A stretch of 64,000 bases of DNA from an uncultured Holophagales bacterium (GTDB lineage Bacteria; Acidobacteriota; Thermoanaerobaculia; UBA2201). The notes below the pieces were generated by a model, which was not told where the DNA came from, did no database searches, and saw only the letters and a list, made by a program, of their open reading frames with translations. Positions 31,081 to 60,268 of this stretch are shown here, one piece after another (position 1 is the stretch's first letter; each line of letters starts with the position of its first letter). Position numbers and translations under genes: made by a program. The stretch lies in the NCBI GenBank assembly GCA_964603505.1, contig CAZRVT010000007.1, positions 2,320 through 66,319 of the forward strand. The letters are read 5' to 3'.

Positions 31081-31103
31081 GTTGGGGCGAGGAACGAGGG
31101 AAC

Positions 31104-41926: not shown

Positions 41927-41996
41927 CATTGCCTCCGGCGGATGGCCGTTCCAGATTTCGCCGCCCCATGCCCGTCCCTCCTCTCCCATCCCTCTT

Positions 41997-42905: not shown

Positions 42906-42909
42906 GGCT

Positions 42910-43797: not shown

Positions 43798-43820
43798 GGT
43801 TCCCTCCCTCCTCCGCTCCC

Positions 43821-43932: not shown

Positions 43933-43934
43933 CA

Positions 43935-44828: not shown

Positions 44829-44830
44829 AT

Positions 44831-44900
44831 GTTCAGGGTTCAGGGTTCAGAGAAAAAACCGGCATCCTTCACGCCTTTCTCTGAACGCTCAACTGTCTAC
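44831..44900. repeat. Second heptamer-repeat array in the pstS-pstC spacer
   Basis: GTTCAGG-GTTCAGG-GTTCAGA, then a degenerate inverted arm TCTGAAC-GCTCAAC-TGTCTAC. Confidence 0.7.
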
Positions 44901-44984
44901 TCCTTCGTTCATGGCGCGGAGGTTCGGAGTGGGGCCCCCCGGACCGGCGGGGCCCCTTCCCCGAACGCCGCAAACCGTTCAATC

Positions 44985-45971
<987 letters not shown>

Positions 45972-45993: not shown

Positions 45994-46048
45994 AAGTTAG
46001 TGCCGTTCCATGAAGCGAGCGTTAAGAAACGGTTAAGATTGCGTTAAG
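45994..46048 (-). promoter_or_regulatory. Pho-box-like array and -10 upstream of pstS
   Basis: Minus strand CTTAAC, CTTAAC, CTTAAC, CTTCAT (plus-strand copies start at 46043, 46032, 46021, 46010; 11-bp period), 10-nt gap, TAACTT. Confidence 0.8.
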
Positions 46049-46078
46049 ACGGGGGCGGCCCCAAAGGCCGCCCCCGTC
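46048..46078 (-). terminator. Hairpin after the porin gene, abutting the pstS boxes
   Basis: GACGGGGGCGGCC-N5-GGCCGCCCCCGTC, 13-bp stem, weak U-tract. Confidence 0.6.
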
Positions 46079-46085
46079 GGGACGG

Positions 46086-47234
46086 TTAGATCTTGACGAT
46101 GAAGTCGATCTGGAACCGGGTCAGGTCCTTGTAGGCGTCGGTGGGATCTTCGATCCGGTCGGTGAGATAGACGGTGGCGCCGAGCGTGCTCCACTTGGTC
46201 GTGGCGTAGGTGAAGTCGAAGCGGTGGGACTCGCTGTTGGTGCCGATGGTGCAGTCGGACTGCACATAGGCGTAGAAGAGAGCTTCGGCCTCCATGTAGT
46301 AGTAGGTGTAGCGAACTTCCCATCCGCCCTTATCCTTGGTCCCTCCATACGAAGTCCGGAGCATGTAGGCGGTGTCCTCGTCGTTATAGGCGCCGTTGTT
46401 GACAAAGTAATGGCCGAAGAGGCCGAACTTGCCGGTCTTAAAGTGGATGAACCCCTCGACGATCTCGAAGTCGCTCTTGAGGGCCTCGAACTTGCCGTCG
46501 GCGGTCTTGGTGTAGGCGTTGGTCAGCGGGTTGCCCCCCATAATCTTTTCGTAGGTCAACCGGGCGAGCGCGTCGGGATTCTGGTATTCCTCGTAGGAGC
46601 CCCCGATGATAAAGCTCATGGAGTCGCTTTTCATCTCGTAGTAGGGCTGGAGGCCGAAAAGATAGGTCTCGTTGGCGGCGCTCTGCTCGCGCATCACGTA
46701 CTGGAACAGATTGACTTTGAGACGGTGCTCCGCCAATCCTGGGGCCTTCCCGGAGGAAAAGGCCAGGGATTCGGCGAGGCCTTCGACGTTCAGGTCGTCG
46801 TCCCACTCCATGTCGGCGTTGATCCTCGCCTTGTTGATGGGGAATTTTCCGGCATGCAGGGCGAAGAGCCCGGAGGGGGTCCAATCCACAAAGGCCTCGG
46901 CGATGCCGATGAACTTCTTGTTCGAGCCGCCGGTCAGGGTGGTGTTGTCCGACACGGGATCGCCATCCTGCTCGCCGGAGCGCAACCCGAGCGTGAAATT
47001 GGTGTTGTCGGAGAGCTTGGCGGAGAGCTTCAGACGGAGGCGGAACCGCTCGCGGAACCGGTCATCCTTTCCGTCCTGCATGAACCCCTCGTAGCGCAGA
47101 CGGAAGTCGCCGCCGAGCTTGATCTTCTCGTACCACTCCTTCTTCTTGGGCTCTTCCTTCTTGGGGGCCGGGGCCTGCGCCCACGCCAGGGAGCCGATGA
47201 TCAGGATCGCTGCGATGCTCAGAAAACGCTTCAT
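46086..47234 (-). CDS. Putative outer-membrane porin (likely phosphate/anion uptake)
   Basis: Signal peptide, IKLGGDFRLRYE, RERFRLRL, alternating beta strands, C-terminal FQIDFIVKI; directly upstream of pstS. Confidence 0.8.
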   Translation of the reverse strand: MKRFLSIAAILIIGSLAWAQAPAPKKEEPKKKEWYEKIKLGGDFRLRYEGFMQDGKDDRFRERFRLRLKLSAKLSDNTNFTLGLRSGEQDGDPVSDNTTLTGGSNKKFIGIAEAFVDWTPSGLFALHAGKFPINKARINADMEWDDDLNVEGLAESLAFSSGKAPGLAEHRLKVNLFQYVMREQSAANETYLFGLQPYYEMKSDSMSFIIGGSYEEYQNPDALARLTYEKIMGGNPLTNAYTKTADGKFEALKSDFEIVEGFIHFKTGKFGLFGHYFVNNGAYNDEDTAYMLRTSYGGTKDKGGWEVRYTYYYMEAEALFYAYVQSDCTIGTNSESHRFDFTYATTKWSTLGATVYLTDRIEDPTDAYKDLTRFQIDFIVKI

Positions 47235-47267
47235 ACAACCTCCTCATGGATTTTTAATTTTCGCGGC

Positions 47268-47322
47268 AGTGTACGGGCCCCCCGTTAAGAAATGATGAAG
47301 ATTTCATGAAGGGTCGGTGAAG
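47268..47322 (-). promoter_or_regulatory. Pho-box-like array and -10 upstream of the porin gene
   Basis: Minus strand CTTCAC, CTTCAT, CTTCAT, CTTAAC (plus-strand copies start at 47317, 47306, 47295, 47284), 10-nt gap, TACACT. Confidence 0.8.
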
Positions 47323-47356
47323 AAAGACCCGGGCCCGGCCGCCCGGTATCCCGGCC

Positions 47357-47584
47357 ATGCCCGCCCCTTCCCCCCGCACCGCCGGGAATGCCCGTGACCG
47401 GTTGCCCCTCGCCGCCTCCCTCGCTGGTTCCGCCCTCCCCTTCTACTCGGAGTTCGGCTTGGACACCCTCGGCGTGCTCATAGAGGCGGCGGTGGCCGCC
47501 ACCGTCGCGGCCCACGCGGCCAACACCCTCTTCAAGCAGGCGGTGCAGGCGCTGGCCGGCGCCATCCTGCCGGCCCTGGGCTAG
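47357..47584 (+). CDS. Possible small hydrophobic protein or gene remnant
   Basis: 75-aa ORF with an Ala/Leu-rich C-terminal half and GC3-biased codons; no clear RBS. Confidence 0.3.
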   Translation: MPAPSPRTAGNARDRLPLAASLAGSALPFYSEFGLDTLGVLIEAAVAATVAAHAANTLFKQAVQALAGAILPALG

Positions 47585-47613
47585 GGGATGCGGTAAGGCC
47601 CCCTCCCAAGCGG

Positions 47614-47668
47614 CTTCACCGATTCTGAACACGCCCTTCATCAAACCCTAACCGTCCTCCCGTACCGT
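47614..47668 (+). promoter_or_regulatory. Pho-box-like array and -10 upstream of olsB
   Basis: CTTCAC (47614), CTGAAC (47625), CTTCAT (47636), CCTAAC (47647), 10-nt gap, TACCGT. Confidence 0.72.
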
Positions 47669-47715
47669 TGTGTGAGCGCCCCCGGGCGCCCAATCTGCGA
47701 AGACGAGGAGGCCCC

Positions 47716-48573
47716 ATGTGGCTTGACTCCGCCCTGCGACCCTTCCCCGGCCTGTTCCGTCCCCGGCCCCAGCCGCCCCTGCGCCTCCCCACCAAGCTCA
47801 ACGCGTTCCAGCCCCGCATCCAGTTCAATCTCGCCAAAGGGCGCTATGCCGTCCGCACCGCCGGCGACCCGTCCGACCTGGCCCGCGTGCTCCGGCTTCG
47901 GCACGAGGTGTTCTATGAGGAGCTGCTCCACCGCGCCACGCGCACGGGCCTCGATTGGGACCGCTACGACCTAAAGGCCGATCACCTGATGGTGGAGGAC
48001 CAGGTCACCGGGCGGCTCATCGGCACCTACCGGGTCATCACCTCGCTCCATTCGAACACCTTTTACTCCCAGAGCGAGTTCAAGATGCGGTCCATGCTGG
48101 CGCTGCCCGGCGTGAAGATGGAGCTGGGGCGCGCCTGCGTCCACCCCGACCACCGCAACGGCGCCACCATCCTCCTGCTTTGGCGCGGGATCAGCGCGTA
48201 CCTGAAGGCCTGCGGCGCCCGATGGCTTTTCGGCTGTTCCTCCCTCAAGGCCGTGGACCCCGTGACGGTGAATCTGGTCTATCGCTACCTGCACCAGAAC
48301 CATGCGGTCGGCCCGAGGATGCGGGTGCGCCCCCGGCGGAAGTTCCGCTACCCCGGGCTGGACCGGGCCCCCGAGGCGCGGTCGCTGACCGAGGCCGAGA
48401 CGGCGCAGGCCCGGGAGCGGATCCCCTCCCTGCTCCAGGCCTACCTGCGGGCGGGGGCGGTGGTCGGTGGGGAGCCCGCCTTGGACCGCGACTTCCAGTG
48501 CGTGGATTTTTTCACCCTCCTCGACGTCTCCCGGCTCGACGCCGCCGTGGAGCGGAAGTACCAAGTATGCTGA
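47716..48573 (+). CDS. olsB: GNAT-family N-acyltransferase, OlsB-like (aminolipid/ornithine lipid synthesis)
   Basis: GAGGAGG RBS; LRLRHEVFYEE, DWDRYD, HLMVED, IGTYRV, FYSQSEF, MELGRACVHPDHRNG, LFGCSS, PSLLQAYLRAGA, DRDFQCVDF. Confidence 0.78.
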   Translation: MWLDSALRPFPGLFRPRPQPPLRLPTKLNAFQPRIQFNLAKGRYAVRTAGDPSDLARVLRLRHEVFYEELLHRATRTGLDWDRYDLKADHLMVEDQVTGRLIGTYRVITSLHSNTFYSQSEFKMRSMLALPGVKMELGRACVHPDHRNGATILLLWRGISAYLKACGARWLFGCSSLKAVDPVTVNLVYRYLHQNHAVGPRMRVRPRRKFRYPGLDRAPEARSLTEAETAQARERIPSLLQAYLRAGAVVGGEPALDRDFQCVDFFTLLDVSRLDAAVERKYQVC

Positions 48574-49394
48574 GGGCCCTCTGGAGGGGGCCGCTCCTGG
48601 CGGTCCTGATCGCGGCCTTCCTGGCCTCGGGCGCCGCGGTCCGCCTTCTGTCTCCGGCCCGGTCCCGGCGGGGACGGCAGGCGCGGCTGACGGGCTTCTT
48701 CGCCCGGCAGGCCCTCGCGCTCCTGGGGGTCCGGGTCGTCCGTGCCGGCCGCCCCATGGCCCGGGGGGGGCTGCTGGTGGCGAACCACCTCTCCTATCTG
48801 GACATCTTGGTCTGGGCGTCGCTGCGTCCCGTTCTGTTCGTGACCTCCATGGAGGTGGGGGCCGACCCCTTCCTGGGCCTCCTGGCCCGTTTGGGGGGGA
48901 GCGAGTTCGTGGAGCGGCGCCGCCCGTCGGGCCTGCGGGGCGAGATCGACCGCCTCTCCCGCCGGCTGTCGGACGGGAACACGGTGATGCTCTTTCCGGA
49001 GGGGACCTCCACGGACGGCTCCCGCATCCTCCCTTTCAAAGCGGGCCTGATGGAATCGGCCCTGCGGGCGGGCGTCCTGATCCAGCCCGCGTGTCTGAGG
49101 GTCGTCGCGGTCGGCGGGCGCCCCTTCGTCCCCGGGGCGGACGACCGGTGGTGCTGGCACGGCCGGATGCGCTTCCTCCCCCACCTCCTCCGCGTCCTCT
49201 CCACCTCCTCGTTTGAGGTTTCCGCCCGGTTCCTGCCCCTTCTCCGCCCCTCCGAGGAGGCCTCCCGCAAGGACGCGGCCGAGGCCGCCCACTTCTTCGT
49301 GGCCCTGGCGTACGAAGCCGGCCGATGCGCCGACCCGGCGGCCGGAGGGCCGGCCCCGTCCGCATGCGCCGAGGCGGGCACGGGGGCGGCCTGA
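48567..49394 (+). CDS. olsA: PlsC/OlsA-family lysophospholipid O-acyltransferase
   Basis: Overlaps olsB; ANHLSYLDI (HX4D), FPEGTSTDG, FKAGL, IQPACL. Confidence 0.78.
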   Translation: MLRALWRGPLLAVLIAAFLASGAAVRLLSPARSRRGRQARLTGFFARQALALLGVRVVRAGRPMARGGLLVANHLSYLDILVWASLRPVLFVTSMEVGADPFLGLLARLGGSEFVERRRPSGLRGEIDRLSRRLSDGNTVMLFPEGTSTDGSRILPFKAGLMESALRAGVLIQPACLRVVAVGGRPFVPGADDRWCWHGRMRFLPHLLRVLSTSSFEVSARFLPLLRPSEEASRKDAAEAAHFFVALAYEAGRCADPAAGGPAPSACAEAGTGAA

Positions 49395-49454
49395 ACGGTC
49401 CGTAAGACCCGCCCCCCCGGACCTTCCCATTCGATTCGATCGCAGGAGGTTCTC

Positions 49455-49733
49455 GTGAAGAAGAAGCCCTCTCCCCCGCAGAAGAGCCCCCGCCGCGTCG
49501 GCGCGCCAGGCGCCCGCCGCCCAGCGGGGCCCTCCATGGCGGAGGTGCGGAGCCGGGCCCGGGCCCACGGCATCCCCATCCTCCGGCGCACCAAGCAGGA
49601 CCTGATCCGCGCGATCCAGATCGCCGAAGGCAACTTCGACTGTTTCGGCACCGCCTTGAGCGGGGAGTGCGACCAGGAGAACTGCTCATGGAGGGGGGCC
49701 TGCCTGGACCGGCCGCACAGGACGAGCCCATAG
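49455..49733 (+). CDS. Small SAP/Rho-N-like domain protein with a four-cysteine C-terminal motif
   Basis: AGGAGG RBS, GTG start; TKQDLIRAIQIAEGNFDCFGTALSGECDQENCSWRGAC. Confidence 0.75.
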   Translation: MKKKPSPPQKSPRRVGAPGARRPAGPSMAEVRSRARAHGIPILRRTKQDLIRAIQIAEGNFDCFGTALSGECDQENCSWRGACLDRPHRTSP

Positions 49734-49788
49734 CCCCGTTGGGGCCCCCGCGGCCCCTGGACTTCCCTCCCCGTCCCCAACGCCCGGC

Positions 49789-51621
49789 TCAGAGTTCCAT
49801 GCAGGCCAGGTGATCCTGTGAATGTTTGGCCCGCCGCTTGAGCTCGGCCAGCAGGCCGCCGACCGCGTCCGGGGACAAGGCGGGCCCGGCGGCGCGGACG
49901 AAGAGGATGGCCGCGGAGGCCTCCAAGGTCCGATAGCGTTGGAAACGGCCGCGCCGGTCAAGGGCCCGGAATCCGCCGGACTCCAACGCCGCCCGGGAAT
50001 GGAAGGCCAGGGCATCGCCCCGGAACTTTTCCAGAAGACCGCGCACGAACGCCACCACCCCCTCCGGCCCGGCCTCGTCCATCGGGACGGAAACGATGAA
50101 GTCGTCCCCGCCGATATGACCCAGAAAACAATCCCGGCCCGCCGAAGCGGCGCGCAATAGGTCGGCCATCAAGAGGAGGATGCGGTCGCCGACCCGGAAG
50201 CCGTGCACGTCGTTGAACGGCTTGAAATGGTCGATGTCGAGATAGATCAAGGCCCGCCCCTCCCGCCGGGTGAGCACATCGGAAAGATGCTCGTGGATGG
50301 TGCGGTTTCCCGGGAGGCGGGTGAGGGGGTTCTGCTCGCGGGCGAGGGCGAGGTTCTTTTCGTTCATGGCGTGGAGAAGGGCCCGGGCCGAGAGGAATCC
50401 GGCGTAGGCCCCTTCGTGCGTGAGCAGGACCCCCTCCGCCGCCGGGTCCAAGGCCAGCATTTCCAGGATGGACTCCACCCGCGATTCGAGGGGGGCGACG
50501 GGGGCGGGGGAAACGAAGTCCGCCACCCGCTTCCCTAAGGAACGGTTCATCAGGAGGTCGCGGCCGTAGGGGGAATAGACATACTCCTTCAGGTCCCGCT
50601 CGGTGAGGAGGCCGAGCGGCCGCCGCTGGGCATCGACCACGGGGAAGTGGCTGCGGTCCTTGTTCCGGCGGAAGATTTCGAACACGTCCCGCAGGGAGGA
50701 GGCGGGGAATTGGATGGGTTCGGGAGTTTCCATCCAGCCCCGGAGAAGGTCTCGGTCGTGGCCGCGGGTCCGGCGGTCCGCCGCCACCAGGCGCCCCACC
50801 GCCTCGTAACGGGCGAGGACCTCTTCCGGGGCCATCGTCGGCCGGGCCACCCAGAACCCCTGCACATAGTCGCAGCCGATCTCCCGGCAGACCCTGAATT
50901 CCGTCTCGGTCTCCACCCCCTCGGCGATGACCTGGATGCCCAGCGTATGCGCCAGGCTGACCACGGTGGAAATGAAGAGCGCCTTCTTGGGCTCGCGGTC
51001 CACGCCGCGCACGAAGAACTTGTCCAATTTCAGGTAGTCGGGCTCGAGCCGGTAGAGCAGTTGGAGACCCGCGTAGCCGGAGCCGAAATCGTCCACGGCC
51101 ACCCGGTAGCCCTGCTGGCGGTACAGGGCGAGGAGGTCGCCGTCCTCCGTCCGGTCGTAGAACCGCTGGTGCTCGGAGATCTCGAAGCACACCGCCCCCA
51201 GCGGCAGGCCCTGCGCTCCGAGAAGGGATTGGGTCATGCCCGGAGTGAAGTCGGGCATGGAGGAGACGCGGGGGTCGACGTTGAGGAACAGGAGCTGGCG
51301 CTCATGCCCCGGCAATCGGACGAACCGTTCCACGGCCCGGCGCCGGAGGTGGAGCTCGAGGCGGAACAGCGTCCCCTCCTTCACGGCGGCGTCCAGCAGG
51401 GCGTGGACCGTCGGAAAGCCGGCCTGCTCTTGGCGCCGGGCCAGCGCCTCCACCCCGAGGCACACCCCCGTGTGGACGTTGACGATGGGCTGAAAGGCCA
51501 CTTCCAGGATTTCGACGATCCTGCTCCATCGCTCGTCGGACCCTTCGGCTTCCCGACGAGGAGGCGGCGCGGCGTTCCCGTCGTCGGAGGGACAGAGGAA
51601 CCGATCGCCGGCAGGGGGCAT
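49789..51621 (-). CDS. EAL-CBS-GGDEF c-di-GMP turnover protein (start approximate)
   Basis: AFQPIV, VEALAR, DDFGSGY, YLKLDK, IAEGVET, QGF; CBS-like HFPVVD; NPLTRLPGN, DIDHFKPFND, GHIGGDDF. Confidence 0.88.
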   Translation of the reverse strand: MPPAGDRFLCPSDDGNAAPPPRREAEGSDERWSRIVEILEVAFQPIVNVHTGVCLGVEALARRQEQAGFPTVHALLDAAVKEGTLFRLELHLRRRAVERFVRLPGHERQLLFLNVDPRVSSMPDFTPGMTQSLLGAQGLPLGAVCFEISEHQRFYDRTEDGDLLALYRQQGYRVAVDDFGSGYAGLQLLYRLEPDYLKLDKFFVRGVDREPKKALFISTVVSLAHTLGIQVIAEGVETETEFRVCREIGCDYVQGFWVARPTMAPEEVLARYEAVGRLVAADRRTRGHDRDLLRGWMETPEPIQFPASSLRDVFEIFRRNKDRSHFPVVDAQRRPLGLLTERDLKEYVYSPYGRDLLMNRSLGKRVADFVSPAPVAPLESRVESILEMLALDPAAEGVLLTHEGAYAGFLSARALLHAMNEKNLALAREQNPLTRLPGNRTIHEHLSDVLTRREGRALIYLDIDHFKPFNDVHGFRVGDRILLLMADLLRAASAGRDCFLGHIGGDDFIVSVPMDEAGPEGVVAFVRGLLEKFRGDALAFHSRAALESGGFRALDRRGRFQRYRTLEASAAILFVRAAGPALSPDAVGGLLAELKRRAKHSQDHLACMEL

Positions 51622-51650
51622 ACGGGGGGACGCGCCGGAGGACGACGCGG

Positions 51651-52190
51651 TCAGCTGTACAGGACGGCCGTCACCACGGCCGTGGCGGCCGCCCCGTCCT
51701 CGCTCTCCAGGACCAGCCGATACCAGGCGAATAGAAGGAGGACCGGGTCCCCCCGGAGGTACGCCCATTCCGTCTCGCCTTCCAATGCCCCTCCCTGGGA
51801 ACGCCAGGAACGGGCGAACACCATGCGGCGGAAGCGCCGGTCCAACTGACCGGCTTCCACCCCTGCGGGACGCACCGCGCGCCAAAGGTGTTGCCGCCCA
51901 TCGGCCCAGTGGAGGATGGCCGGACCCCGGACCGGGAATTCCATCCGGGCCAGATCGGCCGTCGCTCCCGCCACACGGACGGTCAATTGAGGCCGGAAGA
52001 ACCCCACCCGTTTGAAGGTCCAGAGGCCCTCCGCCGTCGTCCCCTGCGCGAGCGAGCCGCCGGAGGAACGGAACTCGAGATGGGCCAGTGCCCCCTCCTC
52101 ATCCCGGAGCAGCCAGGCCCGCCCCTCTTCGGGGACCCAGCGGCACGGCTTTTCCGAACGAGGGGGAAGGGGGCGGAGGGAGAGTTTCAT
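51651..52190 (-). CDS. Hypothetical protein
   Basis: ATGA overlap with the upstream gene; Trp-rich beta-type sequence (GLWTFKRVGFFRPQLTVR). Confidence 0.65.
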   Translation of the reverse strand: MKLSLRPLPPRSEKPCRWVPEEGRAWLLRDEEGALAHLEFRSSGGSLAQGTTAEGLWTFKRVGFFRPQLTVRVAGATADLARMEFPVRGPAILHWADGRQHLWRAVRPAGVEAGQLDRRFRRMVFARSWRSQGGALEGETEWAYLRGDPVLLLFAWYRLVLESEDGAAATAVVTAVLYS

Positions 52191-52840
52191 CGGGCCCCTC
52201 CGGCTTTGCTGCCTTCCCCGCCACCCTTGCGCACAAACAGGGCGGGGTCATCGAGGGCTTCGATGACCCCCGTCAACCCCAGTCGGTCCATCGAGCGCCT
52301 CTCCGCGACCCGATAGAGAGTGAAGGTGAGATCGTACTTCTGGCCGGAAACCATGCGGGTGACGGGAGTGCCGAGCAACCAGGGGACATAGAGGTTCAAG
52401 TCCACCTTGAAGGGCTTTCCCTGAGAAGGGGCCGACGGGGCGGTCCAGGGGAACTCCCCGAACTCCCGGGCGAGGACGATGTACACGGGGTAGGGCACCA
52501 CTTGCTCCGGAAGGGCGTAGAACCGGTCCACCCCGCCCAAAATGTTCTGCGGGTTCGAGTCCTTCATCCAGAAGATGTAGGAATACTCGGCTTGGGCCGG
52601 GAACCGGTTCCGCTCGTGCTTGGACAGATAGAGGAAAACGGCGCCCTCGACGCGGAATTGTTTCTTGAAGGTGGACGCCATGAACTCGCGGTTCAGCGCC
52701 TCGTCCTCCCCGGGGGATTGGGCGCGGCGGACCTGAAGGGAGGCGTAAGTCCGGAGGAGGTCGCCGAGACCGGCCACTTCGGCCGGCGCGCCGGCGGCCA
52801 GCAGGACGACGGCCAAGAGGCTGAGGCGCACGATGCCCAT
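52187..52840 (-). CDS. Exported hypothetical protein
   Basis: GGAGGG RBS; signal peptide MGIVRLSLLAVVLLAAGAPA; normal codon bias. Confidence 0.7.
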   Translation of the reverse strand: MGIVRLSLLAVVLLAAGAPAEVAGLGDLLRTYASLQVRRAQSPGEDEALNREFMASTFKKQFRVEGAVFLYLSKHERNRFPAQAEYSYIFWMKDSNPQNILGGVDRFYALPEQVVPYPVYIVLAREFGEFPWTAPSAPSQGKPFKVDLNLYVPWLLGTPVTRMVSGQKYDLTFTLYRVAERRSMDRLGLTGVIEALDDPALFVRKGGGEGSKAGGAR

Positions 52841-52851
52841 CCCGCCCTCCC

Positions 52852-53223
52852 TCAATCCCTTCCCCCGGCGGGGGCGCCGGGGTCCGGCTCCAGGGCCAAC
52901 AGGGCGCGGCGGACCTCCCGATAGACCAGGAGGGCGAAGAACCCGGCGACCGCCGATCCGAGGAGAAGCCAGCCCGCCGGGTCGTCCGGGACCGCGCGGA
53001 TGCTGCGGAATCCGCCCGCGGCGGCCGCCCCGGCCCCCGCCAGGAACAGGGCGGGGGTCCATGGGCTCTTCGCGGCCATTCCCAAGGAGGCGAGGGTCAT
53101 CCACCCCGCGATGACCCAGGCCCCCCCTCCCACCGGATTGGAGGGGCTCGCCCGGTAGGCCGCCGAGAGGGCGATCAGGGACGAGAGCAGGGAGGGAAAG
53201 GTGCAGAGCAGGAACCGCGTCAT
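52852..53223 (-). CDS. Small membrane protein (about four TM helices)
   Basis: GGAGG RBS; hydrophobic segments throughout. Confidence 0.65.
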   Translation of the reverse strand: MTRFLLCTFPSLLSSLIALSAAYRASPSNPVGGGAWVIAGWMTLASLGMAAKSPWTPALFLAGAGAAAAGGFRSIRAVPDDPAGWLLLGSAVAGFFALLVYREVRRALLALEPDPGAPAGGRD

Positions 53224-53328
53224 GGGAGGACCTCCATCCGCTCCGGGTTCTTCGCCCGGGAAAACCGGGCCGGCGCGGGGCCTGGACGGCCCCGCGTCGG
53301 CCTTGCCACAGGTAAGGAGGGTGTATGT

Positions 53329-54024
53329 TTAACGGCCATGGGCCGTTTCCGGCGTTCCGCGGGAGGCGGCCCGCACGAACCGTCCCGTCCAGGAACGGCC
53401 TTCCGTCAGGGAGATGCCGGAGAGCTCCGTCCCTCCCCGGCGCCGGGGAACCGCCGTCGCTCCGGGGCAGTCCCGGCACTCCCATCCATCCAGGACCACC
53501 GACACGGGCACCTGCCGGCGCCCGGCGGTGGTCCGGTCGGCCACGAGGATCTCCAGCGCCTCTCCGGAAGGAAGGGGGGCCTCCAGCACCACGGTGCCTT
53601 CGATGCGCTCGTGCCCCCGGACCGGACCGTCCGATCCGGAGGAGGAAAGGGCGGTGCGGCGCAGTTCCGGGACCGCCCCGTTGCACTGGATGCGCAGGTC
53701 CTTGAGGATGAGCGCCGACAGGTGCTCCTCCAATTCCCTCCGCTCTTCCTCCTCCAGCCCTCCGCTCCCGTCCCGGTCGAACCGTTCCCGCAGAGGCCCG
53801 GTCTCGTCCCCGTGGTCGAGGACGAGGGTCAGGATCACGCGCACCCGGTCCGGCAGGACCTCCAGCCGGTCCTGCTTGGGATACTGCACCCAATGGCCGA
53901 AGGCCCCGCCGGCGGCGAGGACCAGGGCAATGAGAAGGAACAACCCCTCGATGGAAAAAGGGACCCGCCCCCCGGCGGGCGCGGCCGGGGGCGGGTCGAG
54001 GGGAGAGTATTGATGGGCCGTCAT
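53329..54024 (-). CDS. Membrane-anchored hypothetical protein
   Basis: Start MTAHQY; TM segment GLFLLIALVLAAGGAFG; EF-hand-like FDRDGSGGLEEEE. Confidence 0.65.
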   Translation of the reverse strand: MTAHQYSPLDPPPAAPAGGRVPFSIEGLFLLIALVLAAGGAFGHWVQYPKQDRLEVLPDRVRVILTLVLDHGDETGPLRERFDRDGSGGLEEEERRELEEHLSALILKDLRIQCNGAVPELRRTALSSSGSDGPVRGHERIEGTVVLEAPLPSGEALEILVADRTTAGRRQVPVSVVLDGWECRDCPGATAVPRRRGGTELSGISLTEGRSWTGRFVRAASRGTPETAHGR

Positions 54025-54037
54025 GCCGTTGCCTTGC

Positions 54038-57000
54038 TCAGGGACAGGTGCAGGAGACGGGGGCGGAGGCGCTGTTGCGCGGGGGGTTGGGCTCCGCAGC
54101 CGTCTGATTGATGGTCGCAAAATCCGAGTTGTTGTTGTTTGTTTCCGTGCAACCGGCGGTCTTGCGGTCGTCCGCGGTGGTGTTGGACGGCGCCGGGGCG
54201 GGTCCGGCCCCTTCATAGCAGTTGGCTGTCCCGAACCCCACGAAATCCTTGATCTGCGCCCCGGTGGGACAGGCCCCGGAGAGGGCCGTGGTCGAGGCCA
54301 CCAGCGCCACCTTGCCGGCGGTGGAGGACATGGCGATGGAGCCGACGGCGTCGGCGGAGGGGAGGTCGGCGGTCCCGCCGGAGCCCTGCGCCTCCCAGAC
54401 GAGGTAATAGCCGCCGGAGGGGATGGAACCGGAAAGGTTCGTCACCTGCCAGGTGGTCCCGGTGGCGGAGGCGTATTGCACCGACCAGCCGGCGAGGTCC
54501 TGCGAGGAGCCGCCGCGATTGTGGAGTTCGATGTAATCCCGCTTCCAGTAGGCGCCGGAGTTCCCGCCGCCGCCGTAGACCCGGCTGATGACCACCAGCG
54601 GGTCGCAGGCGGAGCCGGCCTCGACGGTGACGGGCACGGTGTCGAGGGCCGTCTGCGCCCCGCCGGGGCAGGCGTCGGTGACGCGGATGGCGGCGGTGTA
54701 GGAACCGGCGGACGGGTAGGTGTAGGTTGTCGAGGCGCCGGTGGCCTCCGCGGCGAAACTCCCGTCGTAGTGGAAGTCCCATTCATAGGTGAGGGCGCCC
54801 TCCCCGCTACCCGTCCCCGCGAAGGTCTGCGCGGTTCCAAGCAGGACGGTGGTGTCGGGGTCCACGTTGACGATGGAGGCGGAGACGCCGGCGCAGACGA
54901 CGGCGCCGCAGCCGATGGCCGTCGGGGCCGTCCGATCGGCGTCGCGGACCGCGTAAGCGCCGTCGGAGGTGTAGCCGTAGGGCCCCTCCACCCCCCCCGC
55001 CTCGGCGACGACGCGGTAGAAGCCGTCCGGGAGCTGGGCGATGTTTCCGAGGGTCCATTGAATGTAGGTGGCGTTGTCGGTGGACCAGGACCCCTCGGCA
55101 TTATTCTTGAGATCGCAGGCCTTGACCCCGTAGGCCCCGGCGTCGATGGCGTCCTTCCCCGAGGCGCCGTAAAGGTGGTACCGGTAGGCGCTTCCCTTGT
55201 AGTCGGCGCGCACCACCAGGCCGCCCCCCGCCTTGGTCAGGGTGAAGGGGACGGCGGCCCCCGCGGGGCTCACTTCGGGGGGGGAGGAGACGGGAAGGGG
55301 GGTGTTGAACTGCCCATCGACGGAGCGGAAGGTTCCGCCGCCGCAGGCGGCGGAGACGCTCTCCACCTGGAAGTGATAGGTGGTTCCGGGGGCAAGCCCC
55401 GACAGGGTGGCGTAGTGGTGGCGCGTGCCGGAGGGGCCGGTGACGGTGGTCCCATAGGCCGTGGAGGTCCCGTACCGGACCGTGGAGGTGGAGGCGAGGT
55501 CGGTGTCCCACACGATCTGCACCGTGGCGGCGTCCACGAACTGAACCACGGGACCGTAGGTCGCCTGCGGGACGATCCCGGCGGCCGTGGTGAAGGTGAA
55601 GTCCCCCGAAACGATCCCGTCGGTCGTCACCCGATAGTGGTAGAGCGTGCCGGCCGCGAGGCCGCTCAGCGAAACGACATGCTGGTTCACGCTCGAGGCG
55701 CCGGTGGCCTGCGACCCGTAGGCGGAGGTGGGGCCGTAATCCACCACGCTCGTTCCCGGCTTCGTGGTGTACCAGGTGACGGTGGCGCCGCACGCGGTGA
55801 CCGGCCAGGCGGCGGGACCATGGAGGATGCGGTTGGGATGGCCCGATTCGATGATGTCGATCCGCTGGCGCGGCAGGAGCTGATAGCTGTCGCGGTAGGG
55901 GCTGGCGGGGTCGTATTGCCCCAGGACCGCAATGACGTCGAAGGTCCCGACGGGCGCCGGCGTCCCGTCGATATCGGTGTCGGAATCGATCCGCATGGTC
56001 ATGTAATTGGCGCCGTCGTTGACCGTGATGTTGGCACTGTTGCCGTAGGCGGGCCAGGTGCCGCCGGTGATGGTGAGGTTGTTGACCCGCACCAGCATCC
56101 CCTCCCACTGGTCGGCGTTGGCCCAGGTCCAGAGGTCGTACACGGTCCGGACCGAGGGCTCGGGGACGGGGCGCCCCTCGTCCAGCAGTTCGATGGAGAC
56201 GCCCGAGAGTTCGAGCAGGCCGTTGTAGTTGGTGATCGTCCCGGTGGCCTGGATGTAATCGCCGGGGTACAGCTCCGGCTTGATGAGGCCGTACTGGTAG
56301 ATGGTGGTCCCGCCGGAGCGCTTGTTGACCGTGTCGATGCTGTCGTCCTGGAAATAGACGGTGTTGGAGCGGTGGTCGAAGGTCCAGGAGCCGGCGGTGA
56401 CGGTCCCCTGGACGGTGACCACCTCGTTCAGGCGCGTGTACTGGTAATTGGCGTCCACCGGCCGAATCTGGCTGATGGGCTCCACCCGAAGGCCGGCGTT
56501 GCCCGGGGCGTCGAAGAGGCCGTTGTTGTTGAAATCGGCGTAGTGCGGGTTGGTGTGGGCGTAGGGGCACACCGGGTCGGTGCCGTACATGGGGGGAAGG
56601 AGGGGATCGAGCCGGCCCGGACAGCCGGGGGTGATGCAGACATTGGAGGCATCGGTCTCGCACTGCCCTCCCTTGACTTCCACCGCCACCCACGCGTCGC
56701 GCGAGAGGGTGAGCGGGTAGGTCTGGTCCAGCCGGACCACGGTGCCGGTGGCGGGGACGATGGAGACGGTTTGGACCGTTTCGCCGTTGACGATGATGTT
56801 CAGTGTGTCCACCGTCATCCAGGCGGGGGCCTGGATCCGCACCCGGAGGGTGGCGGCGCCGGAGGGGGCGCTCACCAGGGCCCCCATGGGCTGGCCGTCC
56901 AGCCAGGTCTCCACGAAGGGGCCGTTGGTGAGGACCACGCGCCCGCTTCGGACCGCGTCGCGGAAGGCGGCCTCGGTGATCGCCGCCGGCGCGTCCGTCC

Positions 57001-59032
57001 CCGTATAGACATAATTGCGGGGATAGCCGATCTCCTGGGAGAAGATTTGGTGGGTGTCGGTGTTCCCCACCCCCACCACCCGGTGGCCGGCGTTGAGGAG
57101 GTTGTACCAGTCGTTGAGGACCTGGGCCACCTGGTAGAGCCGCTTGCCGTTGACCACCTCCACGGCGTCGTAATCGTCGGAGTAGGCGGGGTCGCCGGGT
57201 TCCGCCGTGACGGGGTTGAGGGCGCAGAGGTCGAAGTAGCCCAGCCCTCCGGCCCTGGGGTGGTTCACCTGCACCACCGGGTCCTTCGGGTCGGACCGCA
57301 GGGCGCTGAAGATCTGCTGGGGGGAGAGGCCCGCGTGGTCCAGGGCCCCGTTGCGGGGGGCGCCGGGGTCCCGTGTGAGCGGGTAGCCGTTGTGGTGGCC
57401 CCAGGTGTTGGTCGTCACTTCATCCCCGGAGAACGCATTGACATGCGCCCCCATCCCCGTCGCGGCGATGGCGGTGTTCATCTCGGAGATGTAGTCGTGG
57501 TCGGTGACCACCACGATCTCCAGCCCCTCGGCCGCGGACTGGACGGCGCGGTCCTCCCACGCAATGGCCGAGTCGGCCGATCCGGCCCCGTGGACGTGCA
57601 TGTCCCCGGAGACATAGCCCGCGGTGTCCACCACCTTCTGCAGGACGGCGTTGAAGACGGCGGTCCCCGCCTCGGCCACCGTGAGGGTCTGGACCGCCGG
57701 CTCATACTCGACGCCCCGGGTGGCCCATACCTGGTAGGTGCCCGGCGGGACGATGGTGGAGCCCGGCCCGGAGCCCGAGAGGATGGCGTACCCGCCGATG
57801 AGGCTGCGGCTGTCCCCCAGCGTGGGCCCCTCCCACTTGGCGGTCAGGGGGGAGTAGAGGACGGAGATCTTGGCGGGCAGGGGCCCGCCCAGGGCGTCCC
57901 GGATGTCCCACGCGAGGGTGCCGGGCCGCGACATCGTCTGGTTCAGCGTCGTGGTGCTGCCGGCGGCGACGGCGACCGTCTGGCAGGCGGTGGTGGTGCG
58001 CCCCACGGCCTTGAACAGGACGTAATAGGTCCCCGGCTCAAGGTCGGCCGAATAGGCGCCGGAGGCGTTGGTGCGGGCGATGGTGTAGGACTTGGAGCCG
58101 GAGGCGCCCAGGCAGGCGCCGGTGTTGATGACCACCGAGGCCCCCGACACGGGGTTGCCGGTGACATTCTCCACCACGGCCCCCGCCAGCGTCCCGGTGA
58201 AGGTCCCGCTGAGGTGGAAGGCCTCGTCCGAGACCGAAGCGATGGAGCCGGTCCCCACGATGAAGTATCGCGTATACGCCCCCGTCCCCCCCCCGGCCGG
58301 GAGGTTCAGGTAGATGAAATTGGTGTCCGACCACGTGGAGCCGTTGGACATCTCGATGAGAGGATTGCCCGCGGGCCGGCCCACGCCGTAGGCCGATCCC
58401 TGTCCGTCCCCGGCCACCCAAGGACAGTCGAGGGTCTTGCCGCCGATGTCGTAGCCGTCGCCAAGGATGTTGCGGTTCAGGTTGGCCCACCCCGGGGCGA
58501 AGTGGGTGGTGAGCCCCCACTGCACCGCATCCCCCACCTGCAATTGCTGGATGTCGGACGGGCCTTGGTTGGTCAAGGTGGTGGTAACGGTCACGAACCG
58601 GTCGCCGGGCGCCAGCGTGTAGTCCGTGACCACCGCGATCTCGGGGTTTTCCGAGTCCACCCCCGTGCAGCGGATGTGCGCGGTCTGGCCGCCCCCGCCG
58701 GGATTGACGACGGCCAGGGTCGTGTAGTTGGCCTGCCGGCCGAAGTGGTTGTCGAACATGGTGAACATCGAGGCGAACCGGTCCTCGCCGGCGGCGTCGG
58801 CCGCGTCGATGATGTTGCCGCCGGTGTTGGCGAAGCCGTGGGGATGGTCGATGGCGTCGATGATCACCCGGATCTGCCCGTTCGAAAGCAGATAGTCGCC
58901 GATCTGACCGTCGGCCGTGACGCCGGGGATGAGCTGGGCGGACGACGTGATGGGGACCGCGGTGGCTTGGGCGGTCAACCGCAGAGGGGCCAGCACGAGG
59001 AGCAACAGGGCCAACATCCGGATGGATCGCAT
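54038..59032 (-). CDS. Giant exported PHP-domain metallohydrolase (CehA/McbA-like) with OB-fold, FN3/purple-acid-phosphatase-N-like, PKD and lamin-tail domains
   Basis: AAGGAGG RBS, signal peptide; PHP motifs GDMHVH, TDHD, HHNGY, NHPR, GNTDTH; OB-like VVTVQGTVT..YFQDD; two VxYGxxxxYG...LxGLxxGTxYHY/F repeats; PKD TYEWDF...YTAAIRVTD; LTD VISRVYGGGGNSG..DYIELHN. Confidence 0.88.
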   Translation of the reverse strand: MRSIRMLALLLLVLAPLRLTAQATAVPITSSAQLIPGVTADGQIGDYLLSNGQIRVIIDAIDHPHGFANTGGNIIDAADAAGEDRFASMFTMFDNHFGRQANYTTLAVVNPGGGGQTAHIRCTGVDSENPEIAVVTDYTLAPGDRFVTVTTTLTNQGPSDIQQLQVGDAVQWGLTTHFAPGWANLNRNILGDGYDIGGKTLDCPWVAGDGQGSAYGVGRPAGNPLIEMSNGSTWSDTNFIYLNLPAGGGTGAYTRYFIVGTGSIASVSDEAFHLSGTFTGTLAGAVVENVTGNPVSGASVVINTGACLGASGSKSYTIARTNASGAYSADLEPGTYYVLFKAVGRTTTACQTVAVAAGSTTTLNQTMSRPGTLAWDIRDALGGPLPAKISVLYSPLTAKWEGPTLGDSRSLIGGYAILSGSGPGSTIVPPGTYQVWATRGVEYEPAVQTLTVAEAGTAVFNAVLQKVVDTAGYVSGDMHVHGAGSADSAIAWEDRAVQSAAEGLEIVVVTDHDYISEMNTAIAATGMGAHVNAFSGDEVTTNTWGHHNGYPLTRDPGAPRNGALDHAGLSPQQIFSALRSDPKDPVVQVNHPRAGGLGYFDLCALNPVTAEPGDPAYSDDYDAVEVVNGKRLYQVAQVLNDWYNLLNAGHRVVGVGNTDTHQIFSQEIGYPRNYVYTGTDAPAAITEAAFRDAVRSGRVVLTNGPFVETWLDGQPMGALVSAPSGAATLRVRIQAPAWMTVDTLNIIVNGETVQTVSIVPATGTVVRLDQTYPLTLSRDAWVAVEVKGGQCETDASNVCITPGCPGRLDPLLPPMYGTDPVCPYAHTNPHYADFNNNGLFDAPGNAGLRVEPISQIRPVDANYQYTRLNEVVTVQGTVTAGSWTFDHRSNTVYFQDDSIDTVNKRSGGTTIYQYGLIKPELYPGDYIQATGTITNYNGLLELSGVSIELLDEGRPVPEPSVRTVYDLWTWANADQWEGMLVRVNNLTITGGTWPAYGNSANITVNDGANYMTMRIDSDTDIDGTPAPVGTFDVIAVLGQYDPASPYRDSYQLLPRQRIDIIESGHPNRILHGPAAWPVTACGATVTWYTTKPGTSVVDYGPTSAYGSQATGASSVNQHVVSLSGLAAGTLYHYRVTTDGIVSGDFTFTTAAGIVPQATYGPVVQFVDAATVQIVWDTDLASTSTVRYGTSTAYGTTVTGPSGTRHHYATLSGLAPGTTYHFQVESVSAACGGGTFRSVDGQFNTPLPVSSPPEVSPAGAAVPFTLTKAGGGLVVRADYKGSAYRYHLYGASGKDAIDAGAYGVKACDLKNNAEGSWSTDNATYIQWTLGNIAQLPDGFYRVVAEAGGVEGPYGYTSDGAYAVRDADRTAPTAIGCGAVVCAGVSASIVNVDPDTTVLLGTAQTFAGTGSGEGALTYEWDFHYDGSFAAEATGASTTYTYPSAGSYTAAIRVTDACPGGAQTALDTVPVTVEAGSACDPLVVISRVYGGGGNSGAYWKRDYIELHNRGGSSQDLAGWSVQYASATGTTWQVTNLSGSIPSGGYYLVWEAQGSGGTADLPSADAVGSIAMSSTAGKVALVASTTALSGACPTGAQIKDFVGFGTANCYEGAGPAPAPSNTTADDRKTAGCTETNNNNSDFATINQTAAEPNPPRNSASAPVSCTCP

Positions 59033-59079
59033 GACAACCTCCTTGCATTCAATCAGCGGGCGGCGCACGCCGCACGGGC

Positions 59080-59134
59080 AGTGTCGGGCATTCGTGTAAA
59101 TATTGACTAAGGATTCGGTTTGGATTGCGTTAAT
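59080..59134 (-). promoter_or_regulatory. Degenerate Pho-box-like array facing the PHP hydrolase gene
   Basis: Minus strand ATTAAC, CCAAAC, CCTTAG, ATTTAC at 11-bp period, 10-nt gap, GACACT. Confidence 0.4.
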
Positions 59135-59166
59135 TTGGCCCCGCTCAAACATGCCCGCGCCGCCGA

Positions 59167-59234
59167 CTTCCGGCCGGCTTCATCGGAACTTTACCCATTC
59201 TTAGCCCAAACCGAACAATCGTGGATGATATTAT
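59167..59234 (+). promoter_or_regulatory. Pho-box-like array and extended -10 upstream of the SPFH gene
   Basis: CTTCCG (59167), CTTCAT (59178), CTTTAC (59189), CTTAGC (59200), CCGAAC (59211), then TGaTATTAT. Confidence 0.6.
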
Positions 59235-59389: not shown

Positions 59390-60268
59390 ATGATGATCAT
59401 TGTCGGTTTGTTGATGGGCGTTCTCACCGCCGCGGCATGGTGGCTGGCCTCCATGGTCCGCGGCCGCGGGCCGGTCCCGGTCCGCCGTCTGGCCGCGGTG
59501 GCGGCGGCCTGGTTGGCCTTCGGCCTGGCCGCCGCCGCGGTCCGCATCGTCCCAGCGGGCCATGTCGGCGTTTTGGATTTGTTCGGCCGCATCAGCCCCC
59601 AGCCCCTCGCTTCGGGGCTGCACCTGGTGAATCCGCTGAGGCAGGTCCACCGCATGGACATCCGTACCCAGGAGGTCAAGGAGACCGCCGATTCCCCTTC
59701 CCAGGAGGGGCTCAACATCCACTTGGAGGTCTCCCTCTGGCTCCAGGTCATCCCGGAGCAGGCGCCGGAGGTGTACCGGACCATCGGGACGGATTACCTT
59801 CAAAAGATCGTCATTCCCTCGTTCCGATCGGCTCTGCGCAACACCACCGCCCGACACGAGGCCAAGGCGCTGTACACGGGGGCCCGCGAATTGATCGCCG
59901 AGGAGGTGCAGGGAACGCTGAAGCCCCTGCTGAAGGCCCGGGGGATCGAGGTCCAAAGCGTGATGCTTCGCAAGGTGGAACTCCCGCCGCGCGTCGCCGA
60001 AGCGGTCAACCAGAAGCTGGCCGCGGAGCAGGAGGCGGAGCGGATGAAGTTCGTCCTCCAGAAAGAGCGGCTGGAAGCCGAGCGCAAGGCGATCGAGGCG
60101 GAGGGGATCGCTCAGTTCCAGCGCATCGTCTCCCAGGGGATCACCCCGACCTACCTGGAGTGGAAGGGGATCGAGGCGACCCTGAAATTGGCCGAGTCGG
60201 CCAACGCCAAAACGGTCGTGGTCGGCAATCCCAAAAACGGCCTGCCCCTCATCCTCTCGGGGCAATGA
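59390..60268 (+). CDS. SPFH/prohibitin (band 7) family membrane protein
   Basis: AGGAGG RBS; IVPAGHVGV, SGLHLVNP, SQEGLNI, AVNQKLAAEQEAERM, AIEAEGIA, YLEWKGIEA. Confidence 0.92.
   Translation: MMIIVGLLMGVLTAAAWWLASMVRGRGPVPVRRLAAVAAAWLAFGLAAAAVRIVPAGHVGVLDLFGRISPQPLASGLHLVNPLRQVHRMDIRTQEVKETADSPSQEGLNIHLEVSLWLQVIPEQAPEVYRTIGTDYLQKIVIPSFRSALRNTTARHEAKALYTGARELIAEEVQGTLKPLLKARGIEVQSVMLRKVELPPRVAEAVNQKLAAEQEAERMKFVLQKERLEAERKAIEAEGIAQFQRIVSQGITPTYLEWKGIEATLKLAESANAKTVVVGNPKNGLPLILSGQ

Follow-up and report, generated by a model that had tools for sequence, protein, structure and literature searches.

Conserved 11-bp hexamer arrays predicted to act as Pho boxes at phosphate-acquisition and phosphate-sparing genes of an uncultured bacterium

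The stretch of 64,000 nucleotides analysed here (hereafter the window) carries tandem arrays of CTTMAY-like hexamers upstream of pstS and a few other genes. The question that this locus raises is whether the arrays are the operators of a phosphate-starvation (Pho) regulon and, if so, whether their motif is peculiar to this lineage, as a preliminary description of the sequence had proposed. We confirmed the four-hexamer arrays that it had reported at pstS, the porin gene and olsB, coordinates and sequences included (Table 1), as well as their exact 11-bp period: same-strand CTTMAY hexamers lie 11 bp apart six times, 22 bp five times and 33 bp twice, so that these spacings dominate, and any other spacing up to 50 bp occurs at most twice in the window. 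All three arrays also end, as described, exactly 10 nt before a TAnnnT box. CTTMAY-N5-CTTMAY has six matches in the window against 0.01 expected, and none of 100 shuffles reached six.

Table 1. Arrays, promoter elements and genes of the window discussed in the text
Feature	Coordinates	Strand	Description
Predicted pstS Pho-box array	46010..46048	-	CTTAAC gcaat CTTAAC cgttt CTTAAC gctcg CTTCAT; PWM 43-45 bits
pstS -10 box TAACTT	45994..45999	-	exactly 10 nt past the last hexamer; no -35 box
GC-rich hairpin	46050..46078	-	3' of the porin gene and immediately next to the pstS array; read from the sequence
Predicted porin Pho-box array	47284..47322	-	CTTCAC cgacc CTTCAT gaaat CTTCAT cattt CTTAAC; PWM ~42 bits
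porin -10 box TACACT	47268..47273	-	10 nt past the array
Predicted olsB Pho-box array	47614..47652	+	CTTCAC cgatt CTGAAC acgcc CTTCAT caaac CCTAAC; PWM ~35 bits
olsB -10 box TACCGT	47663..47668	+	10 nt past the array
SPFH-side array	59167..59216	+	CTTCCG / CTTCAT / CTTTAC / CTTAGC / CCGAAC; conservation covers the last four units
SPFH -10-like box GATATT	59227..59232	+	10 nt past the array
Weak hydrolase-side array	59096..59134	-	ATTAAC gcaat CCAAAC cgaat CCTTAG tcaat ATTTAC; 5.7 bits alone
hydrolase -10-like box GACACT	59080..59085	-	10 nt past the array; identical in relative L212
pstS (SphX-type)-pstC-pstA-pstB-phoU operon	41258..45971	-	Pfam, NCBIfam
Porin_5 family outer-membrane porin	46086..47234	-	Pfam PF16930; candidate phosphate-starvation porin
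olsBA	47716..49394	+	Pfam Acetyltransf_5/Acyltransferase
olsB	47716-48573	+	best NCBIfam model OlsB equivalog, below cut-off
olsA	48567-49394	+	best NCBIfam model OlsA equivalog, below cut-off
SPFH/Band 7 (prohibitin-like) gene	59390..60268	+	Pfam; leader of ~155 nt ahead
Secreted multidomain protein, 1,664 aa	54038..59032	-	signal peptide, CehA/McbA family metallohydrolase domain, ExeM/NucH-like segment

Across 48 units, the base counts at hexamer positions 1-6 are C45, T46, T46, A/C44, A48 and C/T45, with CTTCAT and CTTCAC each as frequent as CTTAAC, and the 5-nt linker that completes the 11-bp unit tends to have an A/T-rich end. Sixteen of the 20 arrays listed from the window and its relatives are followed after 10 nt by TAnnnT, and the remaining four by nAnnnT at the same offset. 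A pattern scan of the array-bearing intergenic regions found no sigma-70 promoter with a -35 box. The three strong window arrays show the layout by which Pho promoters are recognised, namely two or more direct repeats of 11-bp period, the last ending 10 bp before a -10 TAN3T and no -35 consensus, located at pstS and at genes for phosphate acquisition or sparing; in E. coli, too, Pho boxes lie 10 bp upstream of TAN3T/A (PMC1906773). Since the GC-rich hairpin, also present in a relative (L083), separates the porin gene from the pstS array, pstS appears to have its own promoter.

A four-unit position weight matrix (PWM), with 50 Markov shuffles as the null, recovered the array ahead of the SPFH gene, which was not in its training set (59178-59216; 24.9 bits versus a shuffle maximum of 16.6). 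The preliminary description had suggested a PWM scan of the genome and of relatives, and on the relatives' contigs every array of at least 20 bits sits at a promoter. A search for two units plus a -10 box across the window matched only the pstS, porin and olsB promoters. We found no arrays at the window's three phosphodiesterase/sulfatase-TPR genes, its TonB-dependent receptor, its SBP_bac_5 operon or its PiT gene, the last of which has an ordinary promoter instead.

PstS of the window belongs to the cyanobacterial SphX-type subfamily, and sphX is the annotation given to some of its close homologues. Against GTDB representative genomes it reaches 66% identity at best among the matches listed, which are spread over many phyla; the pst operon as a whole is most similar to that of Nitrospirota, at only 60-70% identity, and the named top matches of PstS, porin and SPFH protein disagree (Thermodesulfobacteriota, Deferrimicrobia, Nitrospirota, Thermoanaerobaculia and Gemmatimonadales). 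Close homologues of the porin number only about 14, all of them metagenomic. The olsBA genes serve the synthesis of ornithine lipid, a P-free membrane lipid; in other bacteria Pho boxes have been predicted before olsB, and ornithine-lipid synthesis is reported to be PhoB-regulated (PMC7814305). The window contains no tRNA genes or Rfam matches; the leader of the SPFH gene, considered as a riboswitch or structured RNA, had no Rfam match and a fold z-score of +0.5.

The 1,664-aa secreted protein also carries DUF5689, Pur_ac_phosph_N, PKD and lamin-tail domains and is a candidate extracellular phosphoesterase or nuclease. Pfam detects no PHP domain in its N-terminal 354 aa, and a sequence comparison of residues 1-900 with the PDB gave no match. 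Its earlier label of PHP hydrolase is nevertheless acceptable on account of the CehA/McbA domain (residues 472-832), a family that we take to be a member of the PHP superfamily.

Relatives taken from metagenomes, with pstS 70-92% and porin 55-71% identical, have retained this arrangement. The four-hexamer array, the 10 nt and the TAnnnT box were present at all five non-redundant pstS promoters (L081, L082, L083, L084 and L089) and at all five non-redundant porin promoters (L083, L086, L087, L089 and L090). Within orthologous arrays the hexamers are 88-90% identical versus 45-52% for the spacers. The hexamers of the olsB array are identical in L083, and a weaker array stands in the same register in L087. 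Further arrays precede a PiT transporter 80% identical to that of the window (L090) and a further pstS (L089).

There is no phoB or phoR within the 64-kb window. In a relative whose pstS is 86% identical (L081), phoR and phoB adjoin pstSCAB-phoU, beside phoU. The best NCBIfam models of this pair are PhoB and PnpS/PhoR, both below their curated cut-offs (249 bits for the PhoB candidate versus an equivalog cut-off of 296). The regulator also scores well against the BaeR, CreB and MtrA models, and the best PDB match of its DNA-binding domain is E. coli PhoB (1GXP). Considering their position, periodicity, gene set and conservation, together with the linked phoBR pair in the relative, we conclude that the arrays are very probably PhoB-type operators (Pho boxes) of phosphate-starvation promoters.

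The idea that the arrays are non-regulatory, arising from a short tandem repeat, a mobile-element remnant or chance, draws on the abundance in metagenomes of perfect 11-bp tandem repeats that fit CTTMAY-N5. Such satellites made up most of the at least 80 loci returned by our strict four-hexamer scan of metagenomes and swamped it, so that it gave no usable measure of enrichment. Only 13 of the loci listed have variable spacers, the genes downstream of eight of these being mixed (ABC ATPase, TonB-dependent receptor, KaiC-like regulator, SpoU methylase and others); at another of the eight (L161) the array precedes a Na/Pi cotransporter, with TATACT at 10 nt. A non-regulatory origin is nonetheless effectively refuted, since the spacers vary within arrays and between orthologues while the hexamers are kept, each array points at a gene and has its -10 box at one constant distance, and chance would supply only about 0.01 matches. 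We also regard it as very unlikely that the arrays serve another OmpR/PhoB-family regulator, for instance one of envelope or porin genes, that is insensitive to phosphate and only incidentally linked to pstS. OmpR-family regulators do generally bind direct repeats that recur every 10-11 bp or so, the targets include a porin and an SPFH membrane protein, and the L081 candidate falls below the PhoB cut-off and scores well with BaeR, CreB and MtrA models too. However, the strongest and most widely conserved arrays are at pstS, the canonical Pho target, with others at PiT and olsBA; the candidate pair adjoins the pst operon, the solved structure nearest to the regulator's DNA-binding domain is that of E. 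coli PhoB, and the hexamer core is that of the SphR Pho box.

It is rather unlikely, in our judgement, that only the three strong arrays function and that those on the SPFH and hydrolase sides are decaying or fortuitous near-matches that confer no phosphate-dependent transcription. Such a division would account for several observations: of the SPFH array's five units a single one fits CTTMAY strictly, the -10-like boxes GATATT and GACACT both lack the initial T of TAnnnT (an alternative SPFH -10, TATTAT at 59229-59234, would sit 12 nt from the array), a 63% SPFH homologue in another context (L214) has no array, and the score of the hydrolase-side array equals the null mean and is not significant from the window alone. 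To our knowledge, there is also no link between SPFH proteins and phosphate. Against it, the SPFH array scores above every shuffle, the hydrolase could plausibly scavenge phosphorus, and in an 85% relative (L212/L213) both arrays persist with unchanged register and 10-nt offset, although its intergenic sequence has otherwise diverged and differs in length. In L212 the SPFH array reads CTTAAC/ATTAAC/CTTCAT/GCCAAC, with TAATAT after 10 nt, and the hydrolase-side array CTTAAC/CTGAAC/CCTTAA/ATTCAC (20.4 bits), its third unit shifted by one base as in the window. It is from this conservation that the hydrolase-side array, weak as the preliminary description had called it, gains its support. The five-unit SPFH array of that description stands in its coordinates, but the relative lacks a counterpart of its first unit, CTTCCG (59167). 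The predicted regulon is small as seen here, comprising pst-phoU, the porin and olsBA, with PiT in a relative; the secreted hydrolase and the SPFH gene probably belong to it as well.

As to which kind of Pho box this would be, the cyanobacterial box, bound by the PhoB orthologue SphR, consists of at least three direct repeats of CTTAACCT with a 3-bp linker (PMC1906773, Su et al. 2007; Suzuki et al. 2004), and phoA-nucH is an SphR target in Synechocystis (PMC1906773). The window shares with it the tandem direct repeats of 11-bp period, the core CTTAAC at positions 1-6, the position of the array, with its four tandem units, ahead of an SphX-type pstS, and an extracellular-nuclease-like gene among the targets. 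The agreement with the 8-bp consensus ends at position 6: the CT that cyanobacteria have at positions 7-8 is replaced here by variable bases, mostly G or C, and in the three strong window arrays (12 units) position 7 is G, C or A and position 8 is C, G or A. Moreover, the four units here lie strictly 10 nt from the -10 box, whereas the distance between site and gene varies among the published cyanobacterial cases, and nothing in the window, with its 68.6% G+C and different gene content, points to a cyanobacterium.

The E. coli PhoB box is CTGTCAT-N4-CTGTCAT, with two 11-bp units per box (Makino 1988, Blanco 2002; review PMC4415409). The window arrays resemble it in their 11-bp period, head-to-tail repeats, replacement of the -35, end 10 bp before TAN3T, presence of two boxes (four units) at pstS and T[C/A]A[T/C] core. 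They differ in that the hexamer starts with CTT instead of TGT in the same register, and the guanine contacted by Arg201 in E. coli is missing, that position being T in 46 of 48 units. In Bacillus subtilis, the core binding region of PhoP reportedly consists of four TT(A/T/C)ACA-like repeats, one every 11 bp, according to Hulett and co-workers. It would share with our arrays the four repeats just upstream of the -10 and a TTAAC-type core, but would differ in register and in the flanking base, since the sequence there is TTAACA, whereas here CTTAAC is followed by G or C, and the organism here has an outer membrane.

Our literature search found nothing relevant on Pho boxes in Deltaproteobacteria, Nitrospira or Acidobacteria, and for CTTAAC and Pho regulon together only the cyanobacterial paper (PMC1906773). 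The motif is not lineage-specific, contrary to the earlier proposal: its CTTAAC core is the published SphR core, the 10 bp to TAN3T is the published E. coli geometry, and genomes of Chloroflexota, Nitrospirota, Thermodesulfobacteriota and Syntrophobacteraceae have similar T-type arrays (xTTAAC, likewise offset by 10 nt) ahead of related pstS genes. Of the claim that a Pho operator and regulon had been defined for a lineage, the functional part has strong comparative support and the lineage-specific framing falls.

From the observed anatomy, statistics, conservation and gene set, we infer which regulator acts here, that it binds the arrays and that the promoters respond to phosphate. Each 11-bp unit, CTTMAY plus its 5-nt linker, would bind one winged-helix domain of a phosphorylated PhoB/SphR-like regulator, and four units would seat two dimers, arranged head to tail along a single face of the DNA helix. 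The unit nearest the promoter would take the place of the -35, ending 10 bp before the -10 box, and the bound regulator would recruit sigma-70 RNA polymerase to a promoter devoid of a -35 element. Phosphate limitation would then switch on pstSCAB-phoU for high-affinity uptake, the outer-membrane porin, and olsBA, ornithine lipid replacing phospholipid; the secreted PHP/NucH-like hydrolase and the divergent SPFH gene would be induced more weakly.

The recognition helix of the L081 regulator reads HIKNLRE, versus HIRRLRK in E. coli PhoB. It has Asn at the position of Arg201 and Lys at that of Arg200 (E. coli PhoB numbering), and the regulator keeps the equivalents of Thr194, Val197, Arg203 and the wing Arg219. 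In E. coli PhoB, Arg201 hydrogen-bonds a guanine (PMC3973317), and CTT in place of TGT in the repeat fits the change from Arg201 to Asn. Among 24 pst-linked regulators, 20 have Arg201, and G is the commonest base at hexamer position 2 in 16 of these 20, with a G/T tie in one more. The regulators lacking Arg201 go with T (L081, Asn; L035, Trp) or C (L026, Gly) at that position; one with His (L068) has no usable array, which leaves only three usable cases.

We tentatively consider, as possible though somewhat doubtful, a joint reading in which residue 201 of PhoB is a specificity switch across phyla and the regulon includes the Porin_5 porin, the 1,664-aa hydrolase and the SPFH protein. Arg may go with xGTCAY boxes, and Asn, Trp and others with xTTAAY or xCTAAY boxes. 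The three protein classes, which are not established Pho targets, may belong to the regulon, and the porin may be a functional analogue of PhoE/OprP, unrelated to them in sequence.

Altogether, these arrays represent a real, conserved and well-supported annotation of a Pho regulon of an already known kind, and they leave the current understanding of Pho regulation unchanged. They provide a clean and conserved model of the operator (four CTTMAY units with an 11-bp period, ending 10 nt before the -10 box), with which genes of the phosphate-starvation response can be annotated in an uncultured, poorly sampled lineage of soil or peat with high G+C. They also suggest a likely role, induction by phosphate starvation, for a rare porin family and for a very large, functionally uncharacterised secreted hydrolase. 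The change from Arg201 to Asn, matching the loss of the guanine, offers a small, testable case of co-evolution between a PhoB-family regulator and its operator. If the switch at residue 201 were true, the Pho-box flavour of any uncultured lineage would be predictable from its PhoB sequence.

We consider it very likely that the hexamer arrays preceding pstS, the porin gene and olsB are Pho operators, judging from their geometry and their conservation in relatives, while the hydrolase and SPFH arrays are only probable ones. The preliminary description had read all of them as operators of a lineage-specific Pho box, and the sequence read in the window agrees with the arrays and coordinates that it reported. 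In the proposed mechanism, four 11-bp units on one DNA face would hold two PhoB-like dimers, the proximal unit would substitute for the -35 element, and sigma-70 polymerase would be recruited to the -10 box lying 10 bp downstream. This arrangement matches the published geometry of the E. coli Pho promoter, where the Pho box, defined in 11-bp units (PMC4415409), sits 10 bp upstream of a -10 TAN3T/A (PMC1906773). Furthermore, no sigma-70 promoter with a -35 box was detected in the pstS-porin-olsB intergenic regions. The linker 3' ends tend to be A/T-rich (aat, ttt, att) despite a genome of 68.6% G+C (the value of the window), in agreement with the A/T-rich linker described for the E. coli Pho box.

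Features of the window and of related contigs (genes from Pfam and NCBIfam; arrays written 5' to 3')
Feature	Coordinates	Strand	Description
pstS array	46048-46010	-	CTTAAC gcaat CTTAAC cgttt CTTAAC gctcg CTTCAT, 10 nt, TAACTT
porin array	47322-47284	-	CTTCAC cgacc CTTCAT gaaat CTTCAT cattt CTTAAC, 10 nt, TACACT
olsB array	47614-47652	+	CTTCAC cgatt CTGAAC acgcc CTTCAT caaac CCTAAC, 10 nt, TACCGT
SPFH array	59178-59216
L084 pstS array			CTTAAC gcaat CTTCAC aaatc CTTCAT cagac CTTAAG, 10 nt, TACACT
L086 porin array			CTTCAC cgttc CTTCAC cccaa CTTCAT catcc CTTAAC, 10 nt, TACTCT
L212/L213 SPFH-side array			CTTAAC/ATTAAC/CTTCAT/GCCAAC, 10 nt, TAATAT
L212/L213 hydrolase-side array			CTTAAC/CTGAAC/CCTTAA/ATTCAC, 10 nt, GACACT; 20.4 bits
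phoU, pstB, pstA, pstC, SphX-type pstS	41258-45971	-
Porin_5 porin	46086-47234	-
olsB, olsA	47716-49394	+	product ornithine lipid, phosphorus-free
Secreted protein, 1,664 aa	54038-59032	-	CehA/McbA family metallohydrolase, ExeM/NucH-like segment, Pur_ac_phosph_N, PKD, lamin-tail
SPFH/Band 7 gene	59390-60268	+
SPFH leader	59233-59389	+
SPFH leader, L212	~5409-5571
PiT/PHO4 gene	40243-41241
PiT/PHO4 upstream promoter	40195-40242	+	sigma-70-like: ATGACA, 18 nt ending TG, TAGAAT
TauE/SafE-family permease gene remnant	47321-47583	+	small ORF between porin and olsB promoters
Phosphodiesterase cluster	22085-34271	-	three large phosphodiesterase/sulfatase-TPR proteins, thioredoxin-like protein, CarboxypepD_reg TonB-dependent receptor
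CARDB/MG2-domain protein, 1,652 aa	5828-10786	-	alpha-2-macroglobulin-like
EAL-CBS-GGDEF signalling protein	49789-51885	-	syntenic with olsA in L083
Polyphosphate-related cluster, L084	8545-12903		CHAD protein, two thymidylate-kinase-like genes, Ppx/GppA; pst/porin neighbourhood
Polyphosphate-related cluster, L086	1-4319		as in L084
L087 operon	747-3268	-	Rrf2 regulator, OprO/OprP-type porin, PstS-like binding protein; near olsBA and a Porin_5 gene

CTTMAY-N5-CTTMAY dimers occur six times in the window against 0.01 expected, a count reached in no shuffle. Same-strand CTTMAY spacings of up to 50 bp fall at 11 bp (six times), 22 bp (five) and 33 bp (two), any other value occurring at most twice. 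With a four-unit PWM trained on the pstS, porin and olsB arrays, the SPFH array, which lay outside the training set, scored 24.9 bits compared with a maximum of 16.6 bits in 50 shuffles; the hydrolase-facing array scored 5.7 bits, equal to the null mean.

The lineage is poorly sampled, the nearest PstS relatives (70-92%) being all metagenomic and metagenomes being the source of all close porin relatives (55-71%; ~14 proteins). All four hexamers at the 11-bp period, a gap of exactly 10 nt and TAnnnT are found without exception in the orthologous pstS promoters (L081, L082, L083, L084, L089) and in the porin promoters (L083, L086, L087, L089, L090). Identity among non-redundant orthologues is 88-90% at hexamer positions versus 45-52% at spacer positions, a contrast that marks the hexamers as being under selection. 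The olsB array is retained in L083, and the 55% relative L087 retains a weaker one that is likewise in register. Moreover, unselected arrays were found before a second pstS in L089 and, at 30 bits, before the L090 PiT transporter (80% identical to the window PiT). No hexamer array was found upstream of the window PiT/PHO4 gene, unlike its L090 orthologue, and PiT thus appears to lie inside the regulon in one close relative and outside it in another.

In L212/L213, which carry an 85% SPFH relative, the divergent hydrolase/SPFH region still has its two arrays. The hydrolase-side array there shares with the window its GACACT box and the one-base shift in the third unit, and the remaining intergenic sequence has diverged. 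L214, a 63% SPFH homologue in a different genomic context, is without an array. The SPFH leader is long (~155-170 nt) and G+C-rich in the window and in L212, with a hairpin and T-run directly ahead of the ribosome-binding site. Rfam gave no match to this leader, which is predicted to fold no more stably than its shuffles (z +0.5). The hydrolase had been called a PHP hydrolase, a label that is acceptable because the CehA/McbA family (domain match 181 bits, cut-off 80) is one that we take to belong to the PHP superfamily.

The claim of lineage specificity was overstated. The Synechocystis SphR box, CTTAACCT, which is repeated three or more times with linkers of 3 bp (PMC1906773), has the six-base core CTTAAC in common with the arrays here and differs from them at positions 7-8. 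Among the matches listed, we examined 80 representative genomes with related SphX-type pstS genes, in which the layout of four units, 10 nt and TAnnnT recurs with first bases that vary by lineage: TGTCAC or CGTAAC in Betaproteobacteria and Elusimicrobia, GTTAAC in Chloroflexota, TTTAAC or CTTAAT in Nitrospirota and Syntrophobacteraceae, and CTTCAC-CTTAAC-TGTAAC-TGTAAC in a Thermodesulfobacteriota MAG. Since the layout recurs across these phyla, the architecture is universal and the CTT flavour is a variant in common with cyanobacteria, not a private invention of this lineage. A strict period-11 pattern search of metagenomes (at least 80 loci, L092-L171) was dominated by perfect 11-bp tandem satellites; such satellites, with units including CTTAATGACAA, CTTCACTTCTT and CTTAATAATAT, are common and will dominate any search of this kind.

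Neither phoB nor phoR was found in the 64-kb window with Pfam and NCBIfam. In L081, the genes after phoU encode a histidine kinase and a regulator of the OmpR family, with PnpS/PhoR and PhoB as top NCBIfam models, each under its curated cut-off, and DNA-bound E. coli PhoB (1GXP) is the nearest solved structure to the regulator's DNA-binding domain. Its recognition helix reads DRTVDVHIKNLREKL versus DRTVDVHIRRLRKAL in E. coli. Asn takes the place of Arg201, and the regulator keeps Thr194, Val197, Arg203 and the wing arginine. According to the passage of PMC3973317 citing Blanco et al. 2002, PhoB Arg201 hydrogen-bonds a guanine specifically, and Thr194 and Val197 contact thymines. When the E. 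coli unit TGTCAT is set in common register with CTTCAT/CTTAAC, this guanine is precisely the base absent here. Across 24 pst-linked regulators from the fetched loci, position 201 is Arg in 20; in 16 of these the well-formed units have G more often than any other base at hexamer position 2, and in one more G ties with T. The four without Arg201 are L081 (Asn201; CTTAAC, T), the Chloroflexota locus L035 (Trp201; GTTAAC, T), L026 (Gly201; CCTAAC, C) and L068 (His201), where a usable array is absent. These few cases are suggestive of covariation between residue 201 and hexamer position 2.

The regulon is drawn from the ~64-kb window and ~90 kb of relatives' contigs. In other bacteria, olsB is preceded by predicted Pho boxes, and several are reported to have ornithine-lipid synthesis under PhoB control (PMC7814305). 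Several other phosphorus-related genes of the window have no array upstream; the phosphodiesterase cluster resembles a phosphoester-scavenging locus, yet an upstream Pho-box array is absent. Likewise, no array of at least 9 bits was found at the polyphosphate-related cluster of L084/L086, nor any CTTMAY array at the operon of the distant relative L087, which may represent a second, differently regulated phosphate-porin system. The TauE/SafE permease is intact (260 aa) at the matching position in L083; in the window remnant ~50 N-terminal and the last ~10 residues are recognisable, implying an internal deletion of ~540 nt.

In the searchable literature, only the cyanobacterial paper pairs "CTTAAC" with "Pho regulon", and therefore a CTTAAC Pho box in this non-cyanobacterial lineage appears to be undescribed. 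Two by-products are the most useful: one is the correlation between Arg201Asn and loss of the guanine, and the other is a putative role in the phosphate-starvation response for two proteins, a rare porin and a very large secreted hydrolase.
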